Below are positions 2,538 to 12,082 of a DNA stretch of 32,000 bases, in pieces. Numbering within the stretch: the stretch's first letter is position 1; every line of letters starts with the position of its first letter. Below the pieces are notes generated by a model. That model was not told the origin of the DNA, did not search any database, and saw only the letters and a program-made list of their open reading frames with translations. Origin of the DNA: Massilicoli timonensis (GTDB taxonomy: Bacteria > Bacillota_I > Bacilli_A > Erysipelotrichales > Erysipelotrichaceae); contig NZ_LT963434.1 in NCBI RefSeq assembly GCF_900199515.1, positions 1,396,050 through 1,428,049 of the forward strand, written 5' to 3'. The position numbers and the translations under genes are program-made.

Positions 2538-2614
2538 AAGATAACAAAGAAGCTGTAACGAAACAGACAATTTCATAAAGAAATGAGATTGCGGGTGAAG
2601 TTACAGCTTTTTTT
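2538..2614 (+). repeat. Structured terminator-like repeat, copy A (compound hairpin plus T-run)
   Basis: Outer stem AGCTGTAAC (2551-2559)/GTTACAGCT (2600-2608). Inner stem CAATTTCAT (2568-2576)/ATGAGATTG (2583-2591). T-run 2608-2614. Starts right after the jag stop and is homologous to copy B. Confidence 0.75.
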
Positions 2615-2873
2615 CTATCTTAATTTTATTCAGGTTATGTCATGCAATATAAAATGCAATAAGAAGGTAGGATAACTAAATGATGTATGATGTTTTAGAT
2701 TGTCCATAGTTTTTTTTATCTTTTATGATAGATGATCCTATACAAATAATAATACATGATTTATATATTTTTTTTAAGTCTTTTTTATAATTTGTATTCA
2801 TTTATAATTAAATTATAGAAAGGACAACATAATTGTTGTAATAGAAATAGTTGCACCAAGAGAGGAAAATAAA

Positions 2874-3409: not shown

Positions 3410-3520
3410 CAAGATAATTGATAGAATTTATGTTTCCGCAACCTGAAATTGACAAAAAGAAACAGAAAATTGGTAGTGAGAAAAAGCGGCTTTTATTATA
3501 AATAAAGCGAGGTGATGAAA

Positions 3521-4489
3521 ATGAAATTTAGTGAGAAATTAAAACAATTAAGAAAAGACAAAGGAATGTCACAGGAAGATCTGGCATTTGAACTGAATGT
3601 ATCAAGACAGGCAGTGTCAAAATGGGAGAGCGATAATGCTTATCCGGAAACCGATAAACTGATTCAGATCGGTAAACTGTTTTCTGTTTCGATCGATTAT
3701 TTGTTGAATGAAGAAACAGATCATAATAAGAATGAAGAAATGTTCCCGCAACAATCATTTTATGAAGTCAGTATGGCAGAAATGAAAGATTATTTAACCT
3801 TCAAAAAGAAATTTGCGAAGATGATCGGTATTGGCGTCATGCTATGTATCCTATCTTTATTGCCGCCTTTGATCAGTACAGAAATGAAGCAAATGCAAAG
3901 GATCGCAAATGATGAAATACTGCTAAAAGATGCGCTTGGTGCAGCCGGTATGTTTTTAATTGTAGCGGTAGGCGTCATTATATTTATCATATATGGAATT
4001 AAAAATGCCCAGTTTAATAAAAAATATGAACAAGAATTAACGATCAAAAAAGAAGATTATCGTTATTTGGAAACAGAGCATCAACAGTTCCATGATCACT
4101 TTATCATTGCTATGGCAAGTGGTGTATTTCTTTGTATCTTTGCATTGATTTCGGCTATTTTAATTGATGCAATCATAGAAAAAGATGTTTATACAGGCGG
4201 TTCTTTATTTATATTTGTTGCCATTGCCGTATATATCTTCATTTATTTCGGATTACGAGAATCCTCTTACCAGTTCTTTTTAGAACATGAAAAATATCAA
4301 AAAGAGAAAGAAAAAGAAAAGAAAACAGAAGAAATGACCGATCGCTATTTTGAAATCGTTATGCCGATCGTTGGTGTTTTATACTGTGGCTTTGGTTTAT
4401 GGACCGGTATCTGGCATCCATCTTGGATCGTTTTCCCACTTACGGCTGTAATCATACTGGCTTATGCAGCTATAAAAAATAAGCAATAG
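3521..4489 (+). CDS. Membrane-anchored XRE-family (HTH_3) transcriptional regulator
   Basis: ORF 3512-4489 (GTG). GAGG at 3508-3511 favours ATG 3521. The N-terminus KLKQLRKDKGMSQEDLAFELNVSRQAVSKWESDNAYPETDKLIQIGKLFSVSIDYLL is a classic Cro/C1 HTH, followed by several predicted TM helices. Confidence 0.85.
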   Translation: MKFSEKLKQLRKDKGMSQEDLAFELNVSRQAVSKWESDNAYPETDKLIQIGKLFSVSIDYLLNEETDHNKNEEMFPQQSFYEVSMAEMKDYLTFKKKFAKMIGIGVMLCILSLLPPLISTEMKQMQRIANDEILLKDALGAAGMFLIVAVGVIIFIIYGIKNAQFNKKYEQELTIKKEDYRYLETEHQQFHDHFIIAMASGVFLCIFALISAILIDAIIEKDVYTGGSLFIFVAIAVYIFIYFGLRESSYQFFLEHEKYQKEKEKEKKTEEMTDRYFEIVMPIVGVLYCGFGLWTGIWHPSWIVFPLTAVIILAYAAIKNKQ

Positions 4490-4588
4490 AGAACAGACAA
4501 ACCTTTCCTTCATAGCCATGCAATAATCTGATTTGGCAATAAAAAAGATCAAAATGCTGAAAATGTTTCAAAAATTATTGAAAAACTA

Positions 4589-4617
4589 TTGAAAGTAAGA
4601 GATAAAAGTATTAGAAT
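4589..4617 (+). promoter_or_regulatory. Candidate promoter of the aro leader transcript
   Basis: TTGAAA (4589-4594), 17-nt spacer, TAGAAT (4612-4617). The predicted start is just upstream of the leader RBS. Confidence 0.45.
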
Positions 4618-4638
4618 AAACGCATAGGAGTGATGACC

Positions 4639-4683
4639 ATGCAGAAATTCTCACAATTCTTTTACTTTTATTTTGAATCGTAG
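4639..4683 (+). CDS. Aromatic-codon leader peptide MQKFSQFFYFYFES (candidate attenuator peptide)
   Basis: Not in the ORF track. AGGAG at 4626-4630 lies 8 nt before ATG 4639 (an alternative ATG at 4633 adds MT). Six consecutive Phe/Tyr codons at 4657-4674, located upstream of an aromatic biosynthesis operon. Confidence 0.6.
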   Translation: MQKFSQFFYFYFES

Positions 4684-4731
4684 TCGAGAAACCATAAATA
4701 GCATGGTTATTTTTGATTTTTCGATACAGAC

Positions 4732-4767
4732 AAAGCACAAACGAGAAACAGAAGTTGTGCTTTTTTT
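4732..4767 (+). terminator. Leader (attenuator) terminator preceding aroB
   Basis: AAAGCACAA (4732-4740)/TTGTGCTTT (4755-4763), 14-nt loop, seven Ts (4761-4767), 6 nt before the aroB RBS AAAGGAGG (4774-4781). Confidence 0.65.
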
Positions 4768-4787
4768 ATTAGAAAAGGAGGATGCGT

Positions 4788-5783
4788 ATGAAAATACCGG
4801 TCATGATCCCAAATCATGAGTATGATATTATATTAGAGCGAGGAGCGCTTGCCCACTTAGCAGATTATGTAAAAATACAGGGAAAGGTACTGCTGATCAC
4901 TGATACAGGAGTACCGCAGGCGCATATCGAGCTTGTATCAGCACAGCTTGCGGATTGCGATTGCTATATCGTAGAACAGGGAGAAGGCAGCAAATCTTTT
5001 ACGGTATTGCAAAAAATTTTGTCTTATATGCTTGCACATGATTTTCAGCGCAGCGATTGTGTGATTGCACTGGGAGGTGGTGTAGTCGGCGATTTAGCAG
5101 GTTTTGCCGCAAGTATTTACATGCGCGGGATCCGCTTTATCAATTTTCCGACGACGACTTTGGCACAGATCGACAGCAGCATCGGCGGAAAGACCGCAAT
5201 CAATTTAGATGGTGTGAAAAATGTGATCGGTGCGTTTTATCAGCCCTCCTTGGTCATCATTGATCCGGAAGTATTAAAAACACTGGATCATCGACAGATC
5301 GTCAGCGGCTTGGCAGAGGCATTAAAAGCAGGGTTGATTGCCGATGCAAAATTATTCGCTTTGTTTTCACGAGCAGATCCGATGGAAGAAATCGAAACGA
5401 TCATTTATCGCTCTTTATTAGTTAAAAAGCATATCGTTGAACAAGATGAAAAAGAAACCGGGCTGCGAAAATTATTAAATTTCGGACATACGATCGGACA
5501 TGGCATGGAAGCCTGTTATCTGGATTCCCTTTATCATGGTGAAGCGGTGGCGCTGGGTATGCTTTATTTTATTGAAAATGAAAGTTTGAAAGAACAAGTC
5601 ATCAAGATTTATGAGAAACTGGGATTACCGTGTACATGTGATTATGAAAAAGAAGCGGTATTTACACATATCGCACATGATAAAAAAGCATCGGAGCATA
5701 CGATTGACGTCGTAGTGGTAAGCGATGCAGGGAAAAGTCATATAGAAAAGATGTCTTTTGATGAGATCAAAGCCTGTTTATAG
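4788..5783 (+). CDS. aroB: 3-dehydroquinate synthase
   Basis: ORF 4782-5783. RBS spacing favours ATG 4788. The motifs GGGVVGDLAGFAA, NFPTTTLAQIDSSIGGKT and HGEAVA are typical of AroB. Confidence 0.92.
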   Translation: MKIPVMIPNHEYDIILERGALAHLADYVKIQGKVLLITDTGVPQAHIELVSAQLADCDCYIVEQGEGSKSFTVLQKILSYMLAHDFQRSDCVIALGGGVVGDLAGFAASIYMRGIRFINFPTTTLAQIDSSIGGKTAINLDGVKNVIGAFYQPSLVIIDPEVLKTLDHRQIVSGLAEALKAGLIADAKLFALFSRADPMEEIETIIYRSLLVKKHIVEQDEKETGLRKLLNFGHTIGHGMEACYLDSLYHGEAVALGMLYFIENESLKEQVIKIYEKLGLPCTCDYEKEAVFTHIAHDKKASEHTIDVVVVSDAGKSHIEKMSFDEIKACL

Positions 5784-5794
5784 GAGAATACAAT

Positions 5795-6931
5795 ATGAAA
5801 AATACGTTTGGAAGCAATATTCAGTACACCCTGTTTGGAGAAAGCCATGGTGAAGCAATCGGTATCGTGATTGACGGATTGCCGGCGGGGATCGCATTAG
5901 ATCTTGATTTAATGGAAAGACAGATGGAAAAGCGCAAAGCGAAAGGGAAAATTTCGACACAGCGAAAAGAAGCAGATCAAGTAAAGATCATCAGCGGTTA
6001 TTTCAACGGTCATACAAGCGGAACACCTTTGACGATCCTGATTGAAAATACAAATGTCAAATCACAGGATTATGCGCGAACCCAGATGCTGCTGCGGCCA
6101 TCGCATGCAGATTACAGCGCACATGTAAAATATCGCGGTTTTGAAGATTATCGCGGCGGCGGACATTTCAGCGGACGATTGACCGCACCGATCGTTGCGG
6201 CCGGCAGCATTGCCATGCAAATCTTACAACAGTTGGGCGTACAGATCGCAACACATATTGAAAAGCTGCATGATTTAGAAGATGTGCGCTTTGGACAAAC
6301 GATCGAAGAAGTGGAAACGCAGATTGCTTATTTGCAAGATCGCTCATTTCCGACATTAGATGAAACATGTGGAAAAGCAATGATAGAAAAGATCGAAGCC
6401 TGTGCAAAACAAAAAGACAGCGTTGGCGGAATATTGGAAAGTGCAGCGATCCATGTGCCGGCGGGACTAGGCGAACCGTTTTTTGATTCGATCGAGAGCA
6501 TTCTTGCACATCTGCTGTTTTCGATACCGGCGGTAAAAGGCGTATCCTTCGGCAGTGGATTTGACTTTGCGAATTTGTATGGGAGTGAAGCGAATGATGC
6601 CTTTGCATTAAAAGAAGGAAAGATCGTGACCAAAAGCAATCATAATGGCGGAATCAACGGCGGGATCACCAATGGTATGCCAATTCATCTGCATACGGTG
6701 ATCAAAGCAACCCCATCTATTTACCAAGAGCAGGACAGCGTTGATCTGCAAAGCGGAAAAGAAGCAAAACTGACGATCAAAGGCAGACATGATCCGGCTA
6801 TTTTACACCGGGCGGCGGTCGTCGTAGACAGTATGATCGCCATTGGCCTATTAGAAGCACTTTGTCAGCAAGAAGCAGGTATGGCGTTGATCAAACAAAT
6901 GAGCAGTAACGAAAGAGGAATGATAGTATGA
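5795..6931 (+). CDS. aroC: Chorismate synthase
   Basis: FGESHG, RPSHADY, RGGGHFSGR and GRHDP motifs characteristic of AroC. Confidence 0.95.
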   Translation: MKNTFGSNIQYTLFGESHGEAIGIVIDGLPAGIALDLDLMERQMEKRKAKGKISTQRKEADQVKIISGYFNGHTSGTPLTILIENTNVKSQDYARTQMLLRPSHADYSAHVKYRGFEDYRGGGHFSGRLTAPIVAAGSIAMQILQQLGVQIATHIEKLHDLEDVRFGQTIEEVETQIAYLQDRSFPTLDETCGKAMIEKIEACAKQKDSVGGILESAAIHVPAGLGEPFFDSIESILAHLLFSIPAVKGVSFGSGFDFANLYGSEANDAFALKEGKIVTKSNHNGGINGGITNGMPIHLHTVIKATPSIYQEQDSVDLQSGKEAKLTIKGRHDPAILHRAAVVVDSMIAIGLLEALCQQEAGMALIKQMSSNERGMIV

Positions 6932-7944
6932 TTATTACAATGAAGAAAACGGCAACACAAAAAGATCTCGATTCCATCATTTCTATGATCGAATCAAAAG
7001 GATTACATGTCAATATGATTTCCGGTACAAGTTACAATGTATTCGGTGTAGTCGGTGATACGACGATTTTGGATATGAAGACCATTGAAGCAAATAACAA
7101 GGTTGAAAGCGTCATGCGTGTATCTGAGCCGTATAAGAAAGTAAACCGGTTATTTCATCCGGAAGATACGATCGTAGATGTAAATGGTATCAAGATCGGC
7201 GGAAAAGAGAAGATCGTCGTAATCGGCGGACCTTGTTCAGTCGAGGGACAGGAACAAATATCCCGCATTGCCAAAGAAGTAAAAGAAGCGGGAGCGGATA
7301 TGCTAAGAGGAGGCGCTTATAAGCCGCGTACTTCCCCATATGCGTTTCAGGGATTAGGTTTTGCAGGCATCATGAATTTGGAACAGGCAAAGAAAGAAAC
7401 CGGTATGCCGATCGTCAGTGAAATCATGAGCGTAGATAAAATTGATGAATTTGTGGAGCATGTGGATATTTTGCAGGTTGGCGCCCGCAATATGCAGAAT
7501 TTCGATCTGTTAAAAGCACTTGGTAAAACCAATAAGCCGATCTTGCTGAAGCGCGGACTTTCCAACACGATCGAAGAATGGCTGATGTCGGCAGAATATA
7601 TCATGGCAGGTGGTAATCCGAATGTGATCTTATGTGAACGCGGTATTCGCACCTTTGAAAAATATACGCGCAACACATTAGATCTCAGCGTCATTCCGAT
7701 CATTAAAAAGAAAACACATCTGCCGATCATCATCGATCCATCCCATGCGACAGGCGATTGGGAACTGGTGGAAGCAATGAGCTTAGCAGCGATCGCGGCG
7801 GGTGCAGATGGTTTGATCATTGAAGTGCATGACCATCCGGAGTGTGCGTGGAGCGATGGGGCACAGTCATTAAAACCAAAACGCTTCAAAGAACTGATCG
7901 AAAAAGGGCGTGTGATCGCCAATGTTGTAGGACGCAGCATGTAG
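6928..7944 (+). CDS. aroF: DAHP synthase, type I-beta, with N-terminal ferredoxin-like regulatory domain (paralogue 1)
   Basis: GAYKPRTSPYAFQGLG, VGARNMQN and IIDPSHATG are typical of the DAHPS/KDO8PS I-beta family. A ~75-aa N-terminal extension resembles that of Thermotoga-type regulated DAHPS. ATGA overlap with aroC. Confidence 0.9.
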   Translation: MIITMKKTATQKDLDSIISMIESKGLHVNMISGTSYNVFGVVGDTTILDMKTIEANNKVESVMRVSEPYKKVNRLFHPEDTIVDVNGIKIGGKEKIVVIGGPCSVEGQEQISRIAKEVKEAGADMLRGGAYKPRTSPYAFQGLGFAGIMNLEQAKKETGMPIVSEIMSVDKIDEFVEHVDILQVGARNMQNFDLLKALGKTNKPILLKRGLSNTIEEWLMSAEYIMAGGNPNVILCERGIRTFEKYTRNTLDLSVIPIIKKKTHLPIIIDPSHATGDWELVEAMSLAAIAAGADGLIIEVHDHPECAWSDGAQSLKPKRFKELIEKGRVIANVVGRSM

Positions 7945-7954
7945 GAGGAATTTT

Positions 7955-8974
7955 ATGATCATAACCGTAAAGGCGAATATTCCCGAAAAAGAACTGGAAC
8001 GAATCAAAAGACAGTTTGAAGAACAGGGCTTTCAAATCAATGACAGCTGTGGCGCCAATTATCATATATTGGGACTGATCGGAGATACGACCACATTAGA
8101 TGAAAAATCGATCTTAGCAGATCCTTATATTTCACAAGTTACGCGTATCGCCGTTCCTTATAAACAGGCCAGCAGGCAATTTCATCCGGAAGATACGATC
8201 GTAGATGTAAATGGTATCAAGATCGGCGGAAAAGAGAAGATCGTCATAATCGGCGGACCTTGTTCAGTCGAGGGACAGGAACAAATATCCCGCATTGCCA
8301 AGGAAGTAAAAGAAGCGGGAGCGGATATGTTAAGAGGAGGCGCTTATAAGCCGCGTACTTCCCCATATGCGTTTCAGGGATTAGGTTTTGCAGGCATCAT
8401 GAATTTAGAACAGGCAAAAAAAGAAACCGGTATGCCGATCGTATCAGAACTGATGGACAGCGAACAGTTGGAGGAATTTGTCGAACATGTGGATATCATT
8501 CAGATTGGCGCCCGCAATATGCAAAACTTTTCTTTATTGAAAGCGGTCGGAAAGACGAAAAAACCGGTACTGTTAAAAAGAGGGCTGGCAAATACGATCG
8601 AAGAGTGGATCATGTCGGCAGAATATATTTTGGCGCAGGGCAACCCCAATGTCATCTTGTGCGAACGCGGCATTCGCACCTTTGAAAAATATACGCGCAA
8701 CACATTAGATCTCAGCGTCATTCCGATCATCAAAGAAAAAACACATCTGCCGATCATCATTGATCCATCGCATGCGACCGGCGATTGGAAACTGGTAGAA
8801 GCGATGAGCTTGGCGGCAGTTGTGGCAGGCGCAGATGGTTTGATGATTGAAGTGCATGACCATCCGGAATGTGCATGGAGCGACGGTGCGCAAAGCGTAA
8901 AGCCAAAACGCTTCAAAGAGATCATTGAAAAATGTCGAAAAGCAGCAAAGATCGTCGAAAGGGAATTAGGATGA
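7955..8974 (+). CDS. aroF: DAHP synthase, type I-beta, paralogue 2 (tandem duplicate with divergent N-terminal domain)
   Basis: Same catalytic motifs as paralogue 1. Nucleotides 8181-8442 differ from 7154-7415 at only 5 of 262 positions, whereas the first ~75 codons are highly diverged. Confidence 0.9.
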   Translation: MIITVKANIPEKELERIKRQFEEQGFQINDSCGANYHILGLIGDTTTLDEKSILADPYISQVTRIAVPYKQASRQFHPEDTIVDVNGIKIGGKEKIVIIGGPCSVEGQEQISRIAKEVKEAGADMLRGGAYKPRTSPYAFQGLGFAGIMNLEQAKKETGMPIVSELMDSEQLEEFVEHVDIIQIGARNMQNFSLLKAVGKTKKPVLLKRGLANTIEEWIMSAEYILAQGNPNVILCERGIRTFEKYTRNTLDLSVIPIIKEKTHLPIIIDPSHATGDWKLVEAMSLAAVVAGADGLMIEVHDHPECAWSDGAQSVKPKRFKEIIEKCRKAAKIVERELG

Positions 8975-10245
8975 AAGCAATCGTATATCCTTGCACTCCT
9001 TTCGGCACCTGTGTCATTCCGCCAAGTAAATCACTCAGCCATCGTGCGATCATCGCCGCCGCTTTGGCGTCCGGCACCAGTATCATTGAAAATATATCTT
9101 ATTCAAAGGATATTTTGGCTACCATTGAAGCGATACGAACGATCGGGGCGAAGATCACAGAATCAGGAACGACTTTGACGATTCAAGGGATTGGGACGTT
9201 GCAAGATCTGCCGCAGAAGATGATCGACTGCAATGAATCCGGCTCGACGCTGCGCTTTTTGATTCCCTTATTTGCACTGTCTGAACAAAGCATGATCTTT
9301 ACCGGAAAAGGGCGATTGTTGGAACGTCCGCAAAGTGTTTATCAAGAGTTGTTTGCGAAACAAGGGCTGACATTTTTACAAAATAAAGAACAGATCGTCG
9401 TGCGGGGACCTTTACAGGCAGGCGATTATGTACTGGAAGGAAATATCAGCTCACAGTTTATCAGCGGATTATTGTTTGCATTGCCGCTGCTTCCCGCTGC
9501 TTCCTCAATTACCGTAAAAGAACCGTTTGAATCCGCTTCTTATGTGGAATTGACGATCGATGTTCTAAAACGATTCGGCATTGAGATCATGCGAGAAAGT
9601 CACAATCGCTTTATGATCAAAGGAAATCAACAGTATCAAGCGGCGCATGATCGGGTGGAAAGTGATTATTCACAGGCTGCGTTTTTTGCGGTGTTAGGAG
9701 CGTTACATAAGGGAATCACTTTATCAAATCTCTCAGTCACCTCGAAGCAAGGAGATCAGGCAATCTTAGCGATATTGGAAAAAAGCGGAATCATCATTGA
9801 TCAAACGAAGGAAAATGTCGTGATTCACGGTGGTGAAGTACAGGGAAGTGAAATTGATTTAGCCGACTGTCCGGATCTTGGACCGATCTTAATGGTACTG
9901 GGCGCATTTGCCAAAGGTATGACGCATATTTATCATGCCAAACGGCTGCGCTATAAAGAAAGTGATCGAATCGCGGCAATGGAAACAGAACTAAAAAAAT
10001 TAGGTGTGGAAATTTCCAGCAGTGAAGATGAGATCTGGATAAAGGGAAGTCCTGCTTATCAAGGCGGCGTTGCACTCGAGGCGCATAATGATCATCGCAT
10101 CGTCATGAGTTTAGCAGTTGCGACGACGCTTTGTAAGAAGCCTTGTGTCATTATCGGGGCGCAGGCAATTTCTAAATCTTATCCGCATTTCTTTGCTGAT
10201 CTGGAACGCATCCGAGGAAAGGTCGTGCTGCAGGATGAAAATTAA
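8971..10245 (+). CDS. aroA: 3-phosphoshikimate 1-carboxyvinyltransferase (EPSP synthase)
   Basis: ORF 8932-10245. The homologous N-terminus starts at MKAIVYP... (ATG 8971, ATGA overlap with aroF'). PPSKSLSHRA, NESGSTLRFL and DHRIVMS are EPSPS motifs. Confidence 0.92.
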   Translation: MKAIVYPCTPFGTCVIPPSKSLSHRAIIAAALASGTSIIENISYSKDILATIEAIRTIGAKITESGTTLTIQGIGTLQDLPQKMIDCNESGSTLRFLIPLFALSEQSMIFTGKGRLLERPQSVYQELFAKQGLTFLQNKEQIVVRGPLQAGDYVLEGNISSQFISGLLFALPLLPAASSITVKEPFESASYVELTIDVLKRFGIEIMRESHNRFMIKGNQQYQAAHDRVESDYSQAAFFAVLGALHKGITLSNLSVTSKQGDQAILAILEKSGIIIDQTKENVVIHGGEVQGSEIDLADCPDLGPILMVLGAFAKGMTHIYHAKRLRYKESDRIAAMETELKKLGVEISSSEDEIWIKGSPAYQGGVALEAHNDHRIVMSLAVATTLCKKPCVIIGAQAISKSYPHFFADLERIRGKVVLQDEN

Positions 10246-11119
10246 ACAGGATACCCGGTTTTTGATCATCGGCTTAGGTTTGATCGGCGGCAGTTATGCA
10301 ATGGGATTAAGCAAAGCGGGCTATTCGGTCTTTGCGATCGATCAAGAGCAGGAAGCGATCGACTACGCTTTAGAAAAACAGATGATCGTAAAAGGAGCAT
10401 GCACAGATGATGAAGGTACGGTAATCGCTTTGATCAAACAGGCGGACTGCATCTTATTTGGACTTTATCCAAGTGCGATCCTTCCCTGGATCAGCCGATA
10501 TCAGCAATATATCAAAAGCGGTGCGCTGCTGAGCGATGTCAGCGGAGTAAAAGCGGCGATCGTCCCTTCTATTCAAGCGGCGCTGCGAAATGATCTGGAA
10601 TTTATCGGTGCACATCCGATGGCGGGTAAAGAAGTATCGTCAAATCGATTCAGTGATCCTTCTATTTTCAAGATCGCCAATTTCATTATTACACCAACAG
10701 AAAAAAACAGTAGCGCTGCCATTGCTTTTATGAAAGAATTTGCGCATCTTTTAGGATTTCATCATACAGCGATATTATCCTTGCAGGAGCATGACCGCAT
10801 GATCGGCTTTCTTTCTCAATTGACGCATATCATAGCGGTTGCTTTGATGAATACAAGTGATAATACACATCTGGCCGAATATACCGGTGATAGTTTTCGT
10901 GATCTAACTAGAATTGCGAAGATCAATGAACAGCTGTGGAGCGAGTTATTTTTCTTAAATAAGCCGGTGCTTTTGGCAGAGATCGATGCTTTTTCGAAAG
11001 CTTTGGCATCACTTAGAAAGGCACTGGCCGAAGATGATGAAGAAAAGTTAAAGGAATTGATGCGCTTATCAACGAAGCGCCGTAAAGTATTTGATCAAAA
11101 ACAGGAGGAACATAATTGA
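10235..11119 (+). CDS. tyrA: Prephenate dehydrogenase
   Basis: ORF 10118-11119. The real start is probably ATG 10235 (MKIKQDTRFLIIGLGLIGGSYA, Rossmann GxGxxG). GAHPMAG motif. Overlaps the aroA stop. Confidence 0.88.
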   Translation: MKIKQDTRFLIIGLGLIGGSYAMGLSKAGYSVFAIDQEQEAIDYALEKQMIVKGACTDDEGTVIALIKQADCILFGLYPSAILPWISRYQQYIKSGALLSDVSGVKAAIVPSIQAALRNDLEFIGAHPMAGKEVSSNRFSDPSIFKIANFIITPTEKNSSAAIAFMKEFAHLLGFHHTAILSLQEHDRMIGFLSQLTHIIAVALMNTSDNTHLAEYTGDSFRDLTRIAKINEQLWSELFFLNKPVLLAEIDAFSKALASLRKALAEDDEEKLKELMRLSTKRRKVFDQKQEEHN

Positions 11120-11130
11120 TTCGTGATCAT

Positions 11131-11154
11131 AAGCAGGCACACGCCTGTTTTTTG
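11131..11154 (+). terminator. Rho-independent terminator of the aro operon
   Basis: AGCAGGC/GCCTGTT stem with ACAC loop, followed by TTTTTT. Confidence 0.7.
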
Positions 11155-11160
11155 ATTCTG

Positions 11161-11169
11161 TGATACAAT
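11161..11169 (+). promoter_or_regulatory. Extended -10 element (TGaTACAAT) upstream of the DUF1848 gene
   Basis: TG 11161-11162, TACAAT 11164-11169. Would give a short leader to GAGG (11177-11180) and ATG 11189. Confidence 0.35.
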
Positions 11170-11188
11170 GATAGAAGAGGTGATGGCG

Positions 11189-12082
11189 ATGATCTTATTT
11201 GTCAGCGGCCGCTGTGACATTCCGGCCTTTTATTCCGAGTGGTTTTTCAATCGGCTAAAGATCGGTTTTGTCGATGTTAGAAATCCATATGATCAGCATC
11301 AAATATCGCGTATCCTTTTAGATGAGAAGCATATTGACTGCATTGTATTCTGTACCAAAAATCCCCTGCCGTTATTACAGAAACTCGATGCGATTCCATT
11401 CCCGTTTTTGGTGCATGTTACATTGACACCGTATCATCAGGATATAGAGCCGTTTGTCCCTGATAAAAAACAGATTTTATCCGCAATTCGCACCCTTTCT
11501 GAAAAACTGGGAAAAAAACGGGTAATCGTTCGTTATGATCCGATTTTATTGACGGAACGCTATACGCTTGCTTATCATAAAAAAGCGTTTGCTTCTTTGT
11601 GTGAAAAACTAAGCGGCTATGTGGATACGATCATTATCTCTTTTGTAGATGATTATCGCAATATGCGCAGCCATGCGATCCAAATCAAAATGTACGCACC
11701 GAAAGAGGCAGCCTGCCGGGAACTGGCAAAGGCATTTTATGACAGTGCCGCAAAGCATCAGATCAGGGTGCAGACGTGTGCGGAAAATATGGATTTGCGG
11801 GAATATGGGATCGAAAATCGACCTTGTTTTGCGGAAGCAGATCTGAATGATCGCTTACATACGGCAATTTATTTTCAAAAAGGGAAAAGCGTACGGAAAA
11901 ACTGCAGCTGCCTGCCTACCGTAGATATTGGCGATTACAATGCCTGTTCCTATCGCTGCCGCTATTGTTATGCCAATTATGATGAATCGAAGATAGCAGA
12001 AAATACACATAGGCATGATCCGAATAGTTCCGTCTTGATCGGACATGTGGAAAAAGAAGATAAAATTACGATCAGAAAATGA
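11189..12082 (+). CDS. DUF1848 family protein (uncharacterised, Cys-rich C-terminus)
   Basis: ORF 11168-12082. RBS spacing favours ATG 11189. The N-terminus MILFVSGRCDIPAFYSEWFFNRL is, from memory, the hallmark of DUF1848. C-terminal CSYRCRYC (CX3CX2C) at 11945-11968. Confidence 0.75.
   Translation: MILFVSGRCDIPAFYSEWFFNRLKIGFVDVRNPYDQHQISRILLDEKHIDCIVFCTKNPLPLLQKLDAIPFPFLVHVTLTPYHQDIEPFVPDKKQILSAIRTLSEKLGKKRVIVRYDPILLTERYTLAYHKKAFASLCEKLSGYVDTIIISFVDDYRNMRSHAIQIKMYAPKEAACRELAKAFYDSAAKHQIRVQTCAENMDLREYGIENRPCFAEADLNDRLHTAIYFQKGKSVRKNCSCLPTVDIGDYNACSYRCRYCYANYDESKIAENTHRHDPNSSVLIGHVEKEDKITIRK

Follow-up and report, generated by a model that had tools for sequence, protein, structure and literature searches.

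Ribosome-mediated attenuation in response to amino acids is textbook regulation for Proteobacteria. In Bacillota it is thought to be marginal, since polymerase outruns the ribosomes and T-boxes, TRAP or proteins are used. The subject here is the leader of an aromatic amino acid (aro) operon in Massilicoli timonensis, carried on a 32,000-nucleotide (nt) stretch of contig NZ_LT963434.1. This whole stretch is called the window; coordinates refer to it, and features lie on its + strand, unless another locus or strand is named. A short upstream open reading frame (uORF) with a run of phenylalanine and tyrosine (F/Y) codons, a hairpin at its stop codon (hairpin 1) and an intrinsic terminator precede aroB. 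This aro leader is probably a Phe/Tyr-sensing leader-peptide transcription attenuator, with a switch unlike that of trpL and pheL.

Leader-peptide attenuation in Bacillota has precedents. His leader-peptide attenuators are predicted in Erysipelotrichales, the Bacillus cereus group and Peptostreptococcaceae (PMC9413887, Ashniev et al. 2022), and surveys of premature terminators have led to similar predictions for Bacillota (PMC2965389). In Bacillus, the antibiotic-sensing leader open reading frames (ORFs) of bmrB, vmlR and tlrB are functional (vmlR and tlrB: PMC11602163). The rarity of such control in Bacillota, as put forward in a first-pass annotation of this DNA, was overstated in view of the His leaders (PMC9413887) and of a Phe-codon uORF from Acholeplasma (PMC8632094).

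The latter, uORFC-13-1, is the closest published relative. It comprises 24 sequences found upstream of aroF in Acholeplasma and environmental DNA (PMC8632094, Brewer et al. 2021). Besides a promoter, a ribosome-binding site (RBS) and a start codon, it contains a U-run that codes for Phe, a further base-paired element and a neighbouring terminator (PMC8632094). Compared by description, all these qualitative parts are present in the aro leader, and for uORFC-13-1, as here, no canonical antiterminator is described (PMC8632094). The two differ in that uORFC-13-1 precedes aroF, whereas aroB is the first gene of a six-gene operon here. Moreover, the U-run of uORFC-13-1 encodes Phe, whereas Tyr codons dominate in the aro leader family (UAU 33, UUU 22, UAC 5 and UUC 3). 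Acholeplasma and Erysipelotrichales are related lineages, so that uORFC-13-1 and the Erysipelotrichaceae aro leader may be one family.

Comparison with the pheL-pheA and trpL leaders reveals a likeness of plan and a difference of switch. Both plans consist of a short ORF preceded by its own Shine-Dalgarno (SD) sequence, tandem codons for the end product, and a terminator before the first gene; a pause that synchronises ribosome and polymerase probably occurs in both. The aro leader has no sequence or structure match to the corresponding Rfam families (RF01859 and Trp_leader). Its regulatory codons stand 5′ of the first hairpin and not inside it, its own RBS is one of the switching strands, and its Phe and Tyr codons are mixed. 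A 2:3 helix overlapping the terminator, as in pheL and trpL, is lacking, and a stalled ribosome would not mask region 1. The first-pass annotation named the right kind of element, a Phe/Tyr leader-peptide attenuator, and the wrong switching helices.

The His leaders share the order of parts with the aro leader, namely RBS, start codon, tandem codons, stop codon, 'attenuator hairpin' and terminator hairpin, and differ in having His codons and his operons under control (PMC9413887). As far as the legend of their Additional file 6 tells, they have a potential antiterminator (PMC9413887), and none is conserved in the aro leader. T-box leaders of Bacillota aromatic genes perform the same task from the same position, 5′ of aro, phe, tyr or trp genes, and likewise end in a terminator. 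Unlike them, the aro leader is compact (∼140 nt); in place of Stem I and specifier loop it has a translated ORF.

No description of an F/Y leader in Erysipelotrichaceae turned up in the literature search. Over the whole window no Rfam family reaches its gathering score, and matches at E≤10 are at chance level. Among these, Phe_leader (RF01859) scores 15.4 bits (E=4.9) against a gathering cut-off of 55. T-boxes give no match at the gathering score or at E≤10 in the window and 10 homologous loci, and none of ten leader-bearing loci tested matches any Rfam family. The aro leader is an uncatalogued family, absent from Rfam and widely conserved, with an architecture outside the classical 1:2 / 2:3 / 3:4 pairing scheme. 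In a whole family of common gut bacteria, [Clostridium] innocuum among them, the common aromatic pathway appears to be under the control of a Phe/Tyr leader peptide. The anatomy of the leader combines a conserved helix that sequesters the RBS, a hairpin at the leading edge of the stalled ribosome and a terminator without a competing helix, which suggests a different coupling of ribosome position to termination; a non-canonical coupling, if true, would raise its interest. The system is compact and testable in a culturable organism. Its description annotates a regulatory element that had no annotation and offers a first alignment from which a new RNA family could be built, possibly one shared with uORFC-13-1.

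Conservation of the leader in Erysipelotrichaceae

The leader ORF (4639-4683) consists of 14 codons and a TAG stop at 4681-4683. Its codons ATG CAG AAA TTC TCA CAA TTC TTT TAC TTT TAT TTT GAA TCG TAG encode the peptide MQKFSQFFYFYFES. The ORF, the AGGAG at 4626-4630, 8 nt 5′ of the ATG at 4639, and the six consecutive aromatic codons TTC TTT TAC TTT TAT TTT at 4657-4674 are all as first annotated. Among the SD-preceded small ORFs on both strands of the window, this leader alone has six aromatic residues out of six, which places it beyond chance. A promoter-like site at 4589-4617 (TTGAAA, 17 nt, TAGAAT) agrees with the consensus at 10 of 12 positions and predicts an RNA 5′ end near 4623-4625, 2-4 nt ahead of the leader SD. 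In the homologues, the −35 and −10 boxes stand at an equal distance from GGAG.

The scan of regions upstream of aroB covered 158 loci from genomes and metagenomes and 13 others fetched via protein homologues. The nearest AroB in the species-level genome collection, from Erysipelotrichaceae metagenome-assembled genomes (MAGs), is 57% identical to that of the window. The mini-ORF proves to be conserved, since the leader is kept as an ORF of 10-15 codons with an F/Y run in 12 further distinct lineages, with AroB 52-69% identical. All are Erysipelotrichaceae, among them [Clostridium] innocuum, Amedibacillus and Longicatena. Counts given below refer to the resulting 13 leaders unless another denominator is stated. 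Their common layout is a promoter, GGAGUGAU (replaced by GGAGGCAU in one clade), the short ORF, a stop-codon hairpin, a terminator and the aroB RBS. The closest relatives encode MHKISQFYYYEY (L159, AroB 69% identical) and MHLFSQFYYFYFES (L160, 66%). The other leaders are MRKICRHSYYFYFR (L001), MRKNAYFYYYE (L003/L004 and L018), MMQKRFYYYH (L082), MIQKAYFYYFE (L161/L162, [Clostridium] innocuum), MQNKGYYYFS (L163, Amedibacillus), MHNKGFYYFK (L164, Longicatena), MKMVRGFYFYD (L166), MEHKGFYYYR (L167) and MRNPAKFYFDDEYAS (L169).

Every leader has 3-6 consecutive F/Y codons. Phe and Tyr swap freely between leaders, SD, AUG and stop codon are retained in all, and GGAG..AT is invariant. Such an interchange, restricted to UUU, UUC, UAU and UAC and accompanied by an intact SD, AUG and stop, points to selection on codon identity and not merely on a U-rich RNA. 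A blind scan of both strands of the 171 loci (∼0.9 Mb) for SD-preceded small ORFs with at least four of five residues aromatic, followed by a T-run, returned these aroB leaders and a single unrelated case (L007, see below).

Hairpin 1 (−14.1 kcal/mol) begins inside the stop codon. Its outer helix pairs 4683-4691 with 4717-4725, and its inner helix pairs either AACCAT (4690-4695) with ATGGTT (4703-4708) or 4696-4702 with 4706-4712. The helix 4684-4691:4717-4724 of the first-pass annotation is the base of this hairpin. Hairpin 1 is found in 13/13 leaders, spans 43-58 nt and has a stability of −11.7 to −21.7 kcal/mol. Its onset lies 0-5 nt past the first base of the stop codon, and in L169 the stop is inside the hairpin. 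In the 13-sequence alignment 78-87% of its cells pair and seven pairs are changed on both sides. The outer helix has at least five different sequences across the family, each still complementary: GUCGAGAAA/UUUUUCGAU, GUCCCGAUA/UAUCGGGGC, UUCCUAUCAG/CUGAUAGGGA, UCGUUAUAAAG/CUUUAUAACGA and CAUCAUAAAGC/GCUUUAUGAUG.

The intrinsic terminator (4732-4767) likewise stands as annotated, with AAAGCACAA at 4732-4740, TTGTGCTTT at 4755-4763 and a T7 run to 4767. It has a 9-base-pair (bp) stem and a 14-nt loop (−8.8 kcal/mol) and was missed by a consensus terminator scan because its loop exceeds 8 nt. The terminator is present in all leaders (−6 to −13 kcal/mol, U6-U8), separated from hairpin 1 by a spacer of 4-11 nt. 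AGCA/TGCT and the T-run are invariant, and the upper stem covaries. Hairpin 1 and terminator together have 84.8% of alignment cells paired; sliding the partner lowers this to 34-56%. Their covariation score of 0.278 compares with 0.144 after shuffling, and none of 500 shuffles exceeded it.

Several loci outside this family deserve mention. The Clostridia relatives L165, L168, L170 and L171 are without a leader; in L165, pheA (prephenate dehydratase) is annotated directly 5′ of aroB. In L006, L011, L014, L017, L020, L021, L023 and L025 (Clostridia and Bacilli MAGs), an ORF ending in ...WQYYFY(L/V/M)EAEG... directly precedes aroB, its end lying ∼100-300 nt 5′ of that gene. This end resembles the C-terminus of prephenate dehydratase and so mimics an aromatic-rich mini-ORF in naive scans. 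The 'MWQYYFY...' matches 5′ of Clostridia aroB were rejected as leaders on this account, and the loci, which have no leader, look like pheA-aroB operons with an internal aroB.

The metagenome contig L081 is 99% identical to the window and lacks exactly 96 nt (window 4610-4705; L081 986). The deletion spares the terminator and removes the −10 box, the SD, the entire leader ORF and half of hairpin 1, on its 5′ side. A 1-nt deletion in a T4 run of aroB (L081 ∼1382, equivalent to window 5102) causes a frameshift. L081 is either a strain with a decaying aro operon or an assembly error. As the aroB frameshift accompanies the loss of the leader, this contig is uninformative on mechanism.

Two partners for one hairpin arm

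The 3′ arm of hairpin 1 has two well-supported partners in these sequences, the hairpin 5′ arm and the leader RBS. The second pairing involves element S (4627-4643), composed of the extended SD GGAGTGAT (4627-4634) and the start-codon region GACCATGCA, which is complementary to 4701-4711. Its counterpart is element C (4701-4714), made of GCATGGTTAT and a T-run (TTATTT, 4707-4712), which can pair with the hairpin 5′ arm or with S. In the window, the S × C duplex (4632-4642 with 4701-4711) reaches −16.3 kcal/mol (z −3.7 versus shuffles). The same holds across the family, where CAUGG and the U-run, which make up the apical loop and 3′ arm of hairpin 1, are complementary to the SD/AUG region. The duplexes range from −16 to −24 kcal/mol, with z of −3.4 to −5.9 in 8/12 leaders, and are at least as stable as hairpin 1. 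In 6/13 leaders the SD/AUG helix is part of the unconstrained minimum free energy (MFE) structure. Lineage-specific pairs are GACCAUGC with GCAUGGUU, UAACCAUGAU with AUCAUGGUUA, GAUCAUCAUG with CAUGAUGGUU, CAUGCGUA with UACGCAUG together with GGAGGCA with UGCUUCU, and UAUGCA with UGCAUA. In a MAFFT alignment, 74.7% of cells of this helix pair; slid controls reach 42-50%.

The U-run in the 3′ arm fits TTNTTT in 10/13 leaders. In Bacillus, this is the motif of NusG-dependent pausing, and at tlrB and vmlR such pausing provides time for translation of the leader peptide (PMC11602163). A polymerase pause at the leader U-run may be expected from this resemblance.

The conserved AUG in the 3′ arm also opens a second ORF (MVIFDFS...), which starts at 4703 in the +1 frame of the leader and has equivalents in L159, L001, L003, L018, L082, L163, L164 and L166. 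It passes through the terminator in 9/13 leaders. A function is disfavoured, for its frame varies with respect to the leader, an SD is mostly lacking and the AUG is always paired. It is probably a by-product of a conserved terminator sequence free of stop codons.

The position of hairpin 1 relative to the codon run is constrained. In 11/13 leaders the last aromatic codon starts 8-11 nt before the first pair of the hairpin, whether one or two codons stand between it and the stop. Footprint and helicase data place the mRNA entrance of a decoding ribosome at that distance. The hairpin would therefore stand at the leading edge of the ribosome and not beneath it, so that a ribosome waiting in the F/Y run would leave hairpin 1 intact. 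This geometry is opposite to that of trpL and pheL, where the stalled ribosome covers region 1.

A switch can be proposed on this basis. RNA polymerase would pause at the U-run while a ribosome loads. When charged tRNA-Phe or tRNA-Tyr is short, the ribosome would wait in the F/Y run and occupy or block the SD/AUG, and hairpin 1, remaining closed, would be associated with read-through. With ample supply, the ribosome could reach the stop codon only by opening 6-9 bp of the outer helix of hairpin 1. The vacant SD/AUG region could then capture the freed 3′ arm and latch hairpin 1 open, which would shut off translation of the leader and leave transcription to end at the terminator. Phe/Tyr-responsive control through translation of this uORF is very likely. 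For the two-state switch itself, with hairpin 1 closed or its 3′ arm captured by the RBS, the balance of evidence is about even.

Several observations weigh against the attenuator so proposed. L159 and L169 have an additional Tyr codon 3-4 nt ahead of the hairpin. Column-wise covariation of the SD/AUG helix in the MAFFT alignment does not exceed that of shuffles, because its registers are lineage-specific. Which state is ON is assigned from physiology only, and transcription start, pause and termination alike are predictions. The weakest step is how a closed hairpin 1 would block termination 4-11 nt downstream, as this lies beyond base pairing. When a ribosome was simulated with its A site on the second aromatic codon, on the last aromatic codon or on the stop, the terminator stayed in the MFE structure in 11/12 leaders. 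The exception is the window, which loses its terminator with the ribosome at the stop, i.e. in the wrong state. With the terminator forbidden, both its arms stay unpaired in 13/13 leaders and no alternative structure appears. Duplexes of the terminator arms, or of the aroB RBS, with every plausible partner have a mean z near 0 versus composition-matched shuffles. The duplexes searched were the hairpin 3′ arm with the terminator 5′ arm or with its loop and 3′ arm, the F/Y codons with the 5′ arm, the SD with the 5′ or 3′ arm, the hairpin 5′ arm with the terminator 3′ arm, the early coding region with the 3′ arm, and elements C, B and A with the aroB RBS. Hairpin 1 and the terminator have similar 3′ arms (xAUGGUUAUUUU versus GAUGCUUUUUU). 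Once the hairpin 5′ arm and the terminator 3′ arm are removed, the 3′ arm of the hairpin pairs with the terminator 5′ arm, or with the adjoining spacer or loop, at −1.7 to −8.1 kcal/mol in ∼9/13 leaders, which seems too weak to compete. Moreover, this sole weak competitor of the terminator would be freed by a ribosome that finishes the leader, the wrong direction for a biosynthetic operon.

The same method recognizes an antiterminator elsewhere. The independent and unrelated F/Y leader MFNNFYFFFFTKGCPSSVMFKK of L007, an Acutalibacteraceae MAG, lies in a highly structured region (1396-1600, z −6.2), with its ORF at 1450-1518, and precedes a gene for an AroFGH-type 3-deoxy-D-arabino-heptulosonate 7-phosphate (DAHP) synthase, followed by aroB. 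Like the aro leader, it has an SD-preceded ORF, an aromatic run (FYFFFF) and a terminator before an aro gene, with unrelated sequence. Its SD is sequestered by a segment starting 8 nt past the last Phe codon of the run. Masking of the SD releases this segment, which then pairs with the 5′ base of the terminator at −16.3 kcal/mol, so that by folding L007 has a conventional antiterminator. As masking exposes it, the method finds antiterminators where they exist.

Three last steps may be considered to link the proposed switch to the terminator, and each has at best a small chance of being correct. The ribosome, held by closed hairpin 1 within 4-11 nt of the terminator stem, could hinder it sterically. 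Alternatively, termination at the U-run could be due to the long-range RBS helix, and hairpin 1 could counteract it as antiterminator, leaving the canonical terminator in second place. Finally, a trans-acting factor could recognize the invariant ACAAAAGCA/UGCUUUUUU. In more general terms, it is conceivable but unlikely that, the terminator having no RNA competitor at all, ribosome position is transmitted in a way not described for amino-acid attenuators. In one version, a ribosome docked at the foot of hairpin 1 would block completion of the terminator in the polymerase exit channel. In the other, the SD/start region would be the 5′ arm of a long-range terminator and hairpin 1 the antiterminator. 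Either, if true, would make the leader a three-strand attenuator in which RBS and hairpin 5′ arm compete for one 3′ arm.

Other explanations of terminator control

Two terminators in series represent the alternative that survives best, although it is improbable. Here the regulated terminator would be the SD/AUG-CAUGG helix and its U-run (∼4701-4722), with hairpin 1 as antiterminator, and the canonical terminator downstream would be a second checkpoint, separately controlled or merely leaky. This arrangement gives the correct physiological direction from just two well-supported helices: a stall would favour hairpin 1 and read-through, and a ribosome at the stop codon would favour the SD/AUG helix beside the U-run. 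The helix is 7-11 bp long, 4-6 U occur in the next 8 nt in most leaders, and the U-run is conserved despite being a bulge in hairpin 1. However, termination by a stem over a loop of 55-65 nt is not known, the helix and the U-run do not adjoin in L164, L166 and L169, and transcripts that pass would still reach the conserved canonical terminator, whose suppression is left unaccounted for.

Rather improbable as well is a trans-acting protein or tRNA that binds ACAAAAGCA / UGCUUUUUU or hairpin 1 and sets read-through. The uORF would then not be the sensor and would act, together with the SD-sequestering helix, mainly on stability of the mRNA 5′ end or on translation. A terminator without an RNA competitor and with an unusually invariant lower stem would fit such a factor. 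The UGGU / RCCA elements of hairpin 1 recall, in sequence only, the acceptor-end pairing of T-boxes, and a conserved operator-like inverted repeat (see below) points to other regulatory inputs. Yet the F/Y run, its frame and its fixed distance to the hairpin are conserved in 13 lineages, which is hard to account for without codon-specific sensing by the ribosome. In addition, no T-box or other Rfam family is detected, and no candidate factor is identified.

Other ways of reaching the terminator were discarded. An extension of the leader peptide by frameshifting is not conserved among leaders: the +1 frame stays open past the terminator in L159, L082 and the window, reaches into it in L160, and in the remaining eight leaders meets a stop 10-55 nt past that of the leader; the −1 frame, for its part, ends early in 10/12. 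A pseudoknot between U-run and A-run is disfavoured by a spacer too short for a helix of 8-12 bp and by L163 and L169, which have no A-run.

The first-pass annotation had proposed classical attenuation, with 4684-4691:4717-4724 as 1:2, 4717-4723:4742-4748 as 2:3 and 4732-4740:4755-4763 as 3:4, and with a stall in the F/Y run freeing region 2. The repeats on which it drew exist, CGAGAAAC at 4685-4692 and 4742-4749 and TTTTTCGA at 4717-4724, but the repetition is not beyond chance. The supposed antiterminator 4717-4723:4742-4748 has a ΔG of −5.6 kcal/mol (p=0.19 versus shuffles), 52% of its cells pair across the homologues against 39-51% when slid, and in L159 and L160, the two closest relatives, the terminator loop has no second copy of CGAGAAAC. 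Given the 8-11 nt between last aromatic codon and hairpin, the 1:2 / 2:3 / 3:4 scheme is inapplicable as written. In the window, a pairing of the hairpin 3′ arm with loop and 3′ arm of the terminator is possible (−8.5 to −13.8 kcal/mol) and becomes the MFE once the first 12 nt past the stop codon are masked, and the weak pairing near the terminator 5′ arm recurs as noted above. The classical model is nevertheless very improbable, for its helix is no better than shuffled or slid controls, its 2:3 and 3:4 helices have no nucleotides in common and could coexist as a pseudoknot, and its region 2 is freed by a ribosome at the stop codon and not by an F/Y stall, which would invert the regulation.

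The operon and its surroundings

The downstream aro operon of the first-pass annotation is present. The operon (4788-11157) comprises aroB-aroC-aroF-aroF-aroA-tyrA, thus including two DAHP synthases and tyrA, and ends with a terminator-like hairpin (11131-11150) and a T-run. The F/Y codons of the leader match the output of this operon, which encodes enzymes of the shikimate pathway and tyrA. The RBS and probable start of aroB occupy 4775-4790. AAGGAGG at 4775-4781 sits 6 nt from the ATG at 4788, which is most likely the true start rather than the ATG at 4782. AroB homologues begin with MK.

Inverted repeats of the TGAAA..TTTCA type, lying just 5′ of the −35 box or overlapping it, are carried by nine of the 13 loci with a leader; that of the window is at 4558-4583. 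Further examples are at 1258-1288 in L161, 1271-1286 in L164, 1263-1281 in L167, 1255-1271 in L163, 1108-1151 in L166, 1277-1302 in L159 and 1284-1300 in L169; in L160 a weaker GAAAA..TTTTC repeat is found at the candidate operator position. Several of them resemble the CodY box AATTTTCWGAAAATT, with 14/15 matches in L166 and 13/15 in L161 and L001. From their sequence and position, these repeats are a candidate operator, which would imply control of initiation besides attenuation.

The gene 5′ of the leader (3512-4489) encodes an HTH_3 (Xre-type) domain for DNA binding, joined to what is probably a membrane segment, and the gene after the operon terminator (11168-12082) encodes a DUF1848 protein. 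Neither is kept beside the leader in other lineages. In L001, a purine riboswitch (2609-2710, minus strand, 86 bits) lies just 5′ of the aro leader promoter and belongs to a divergent gene.

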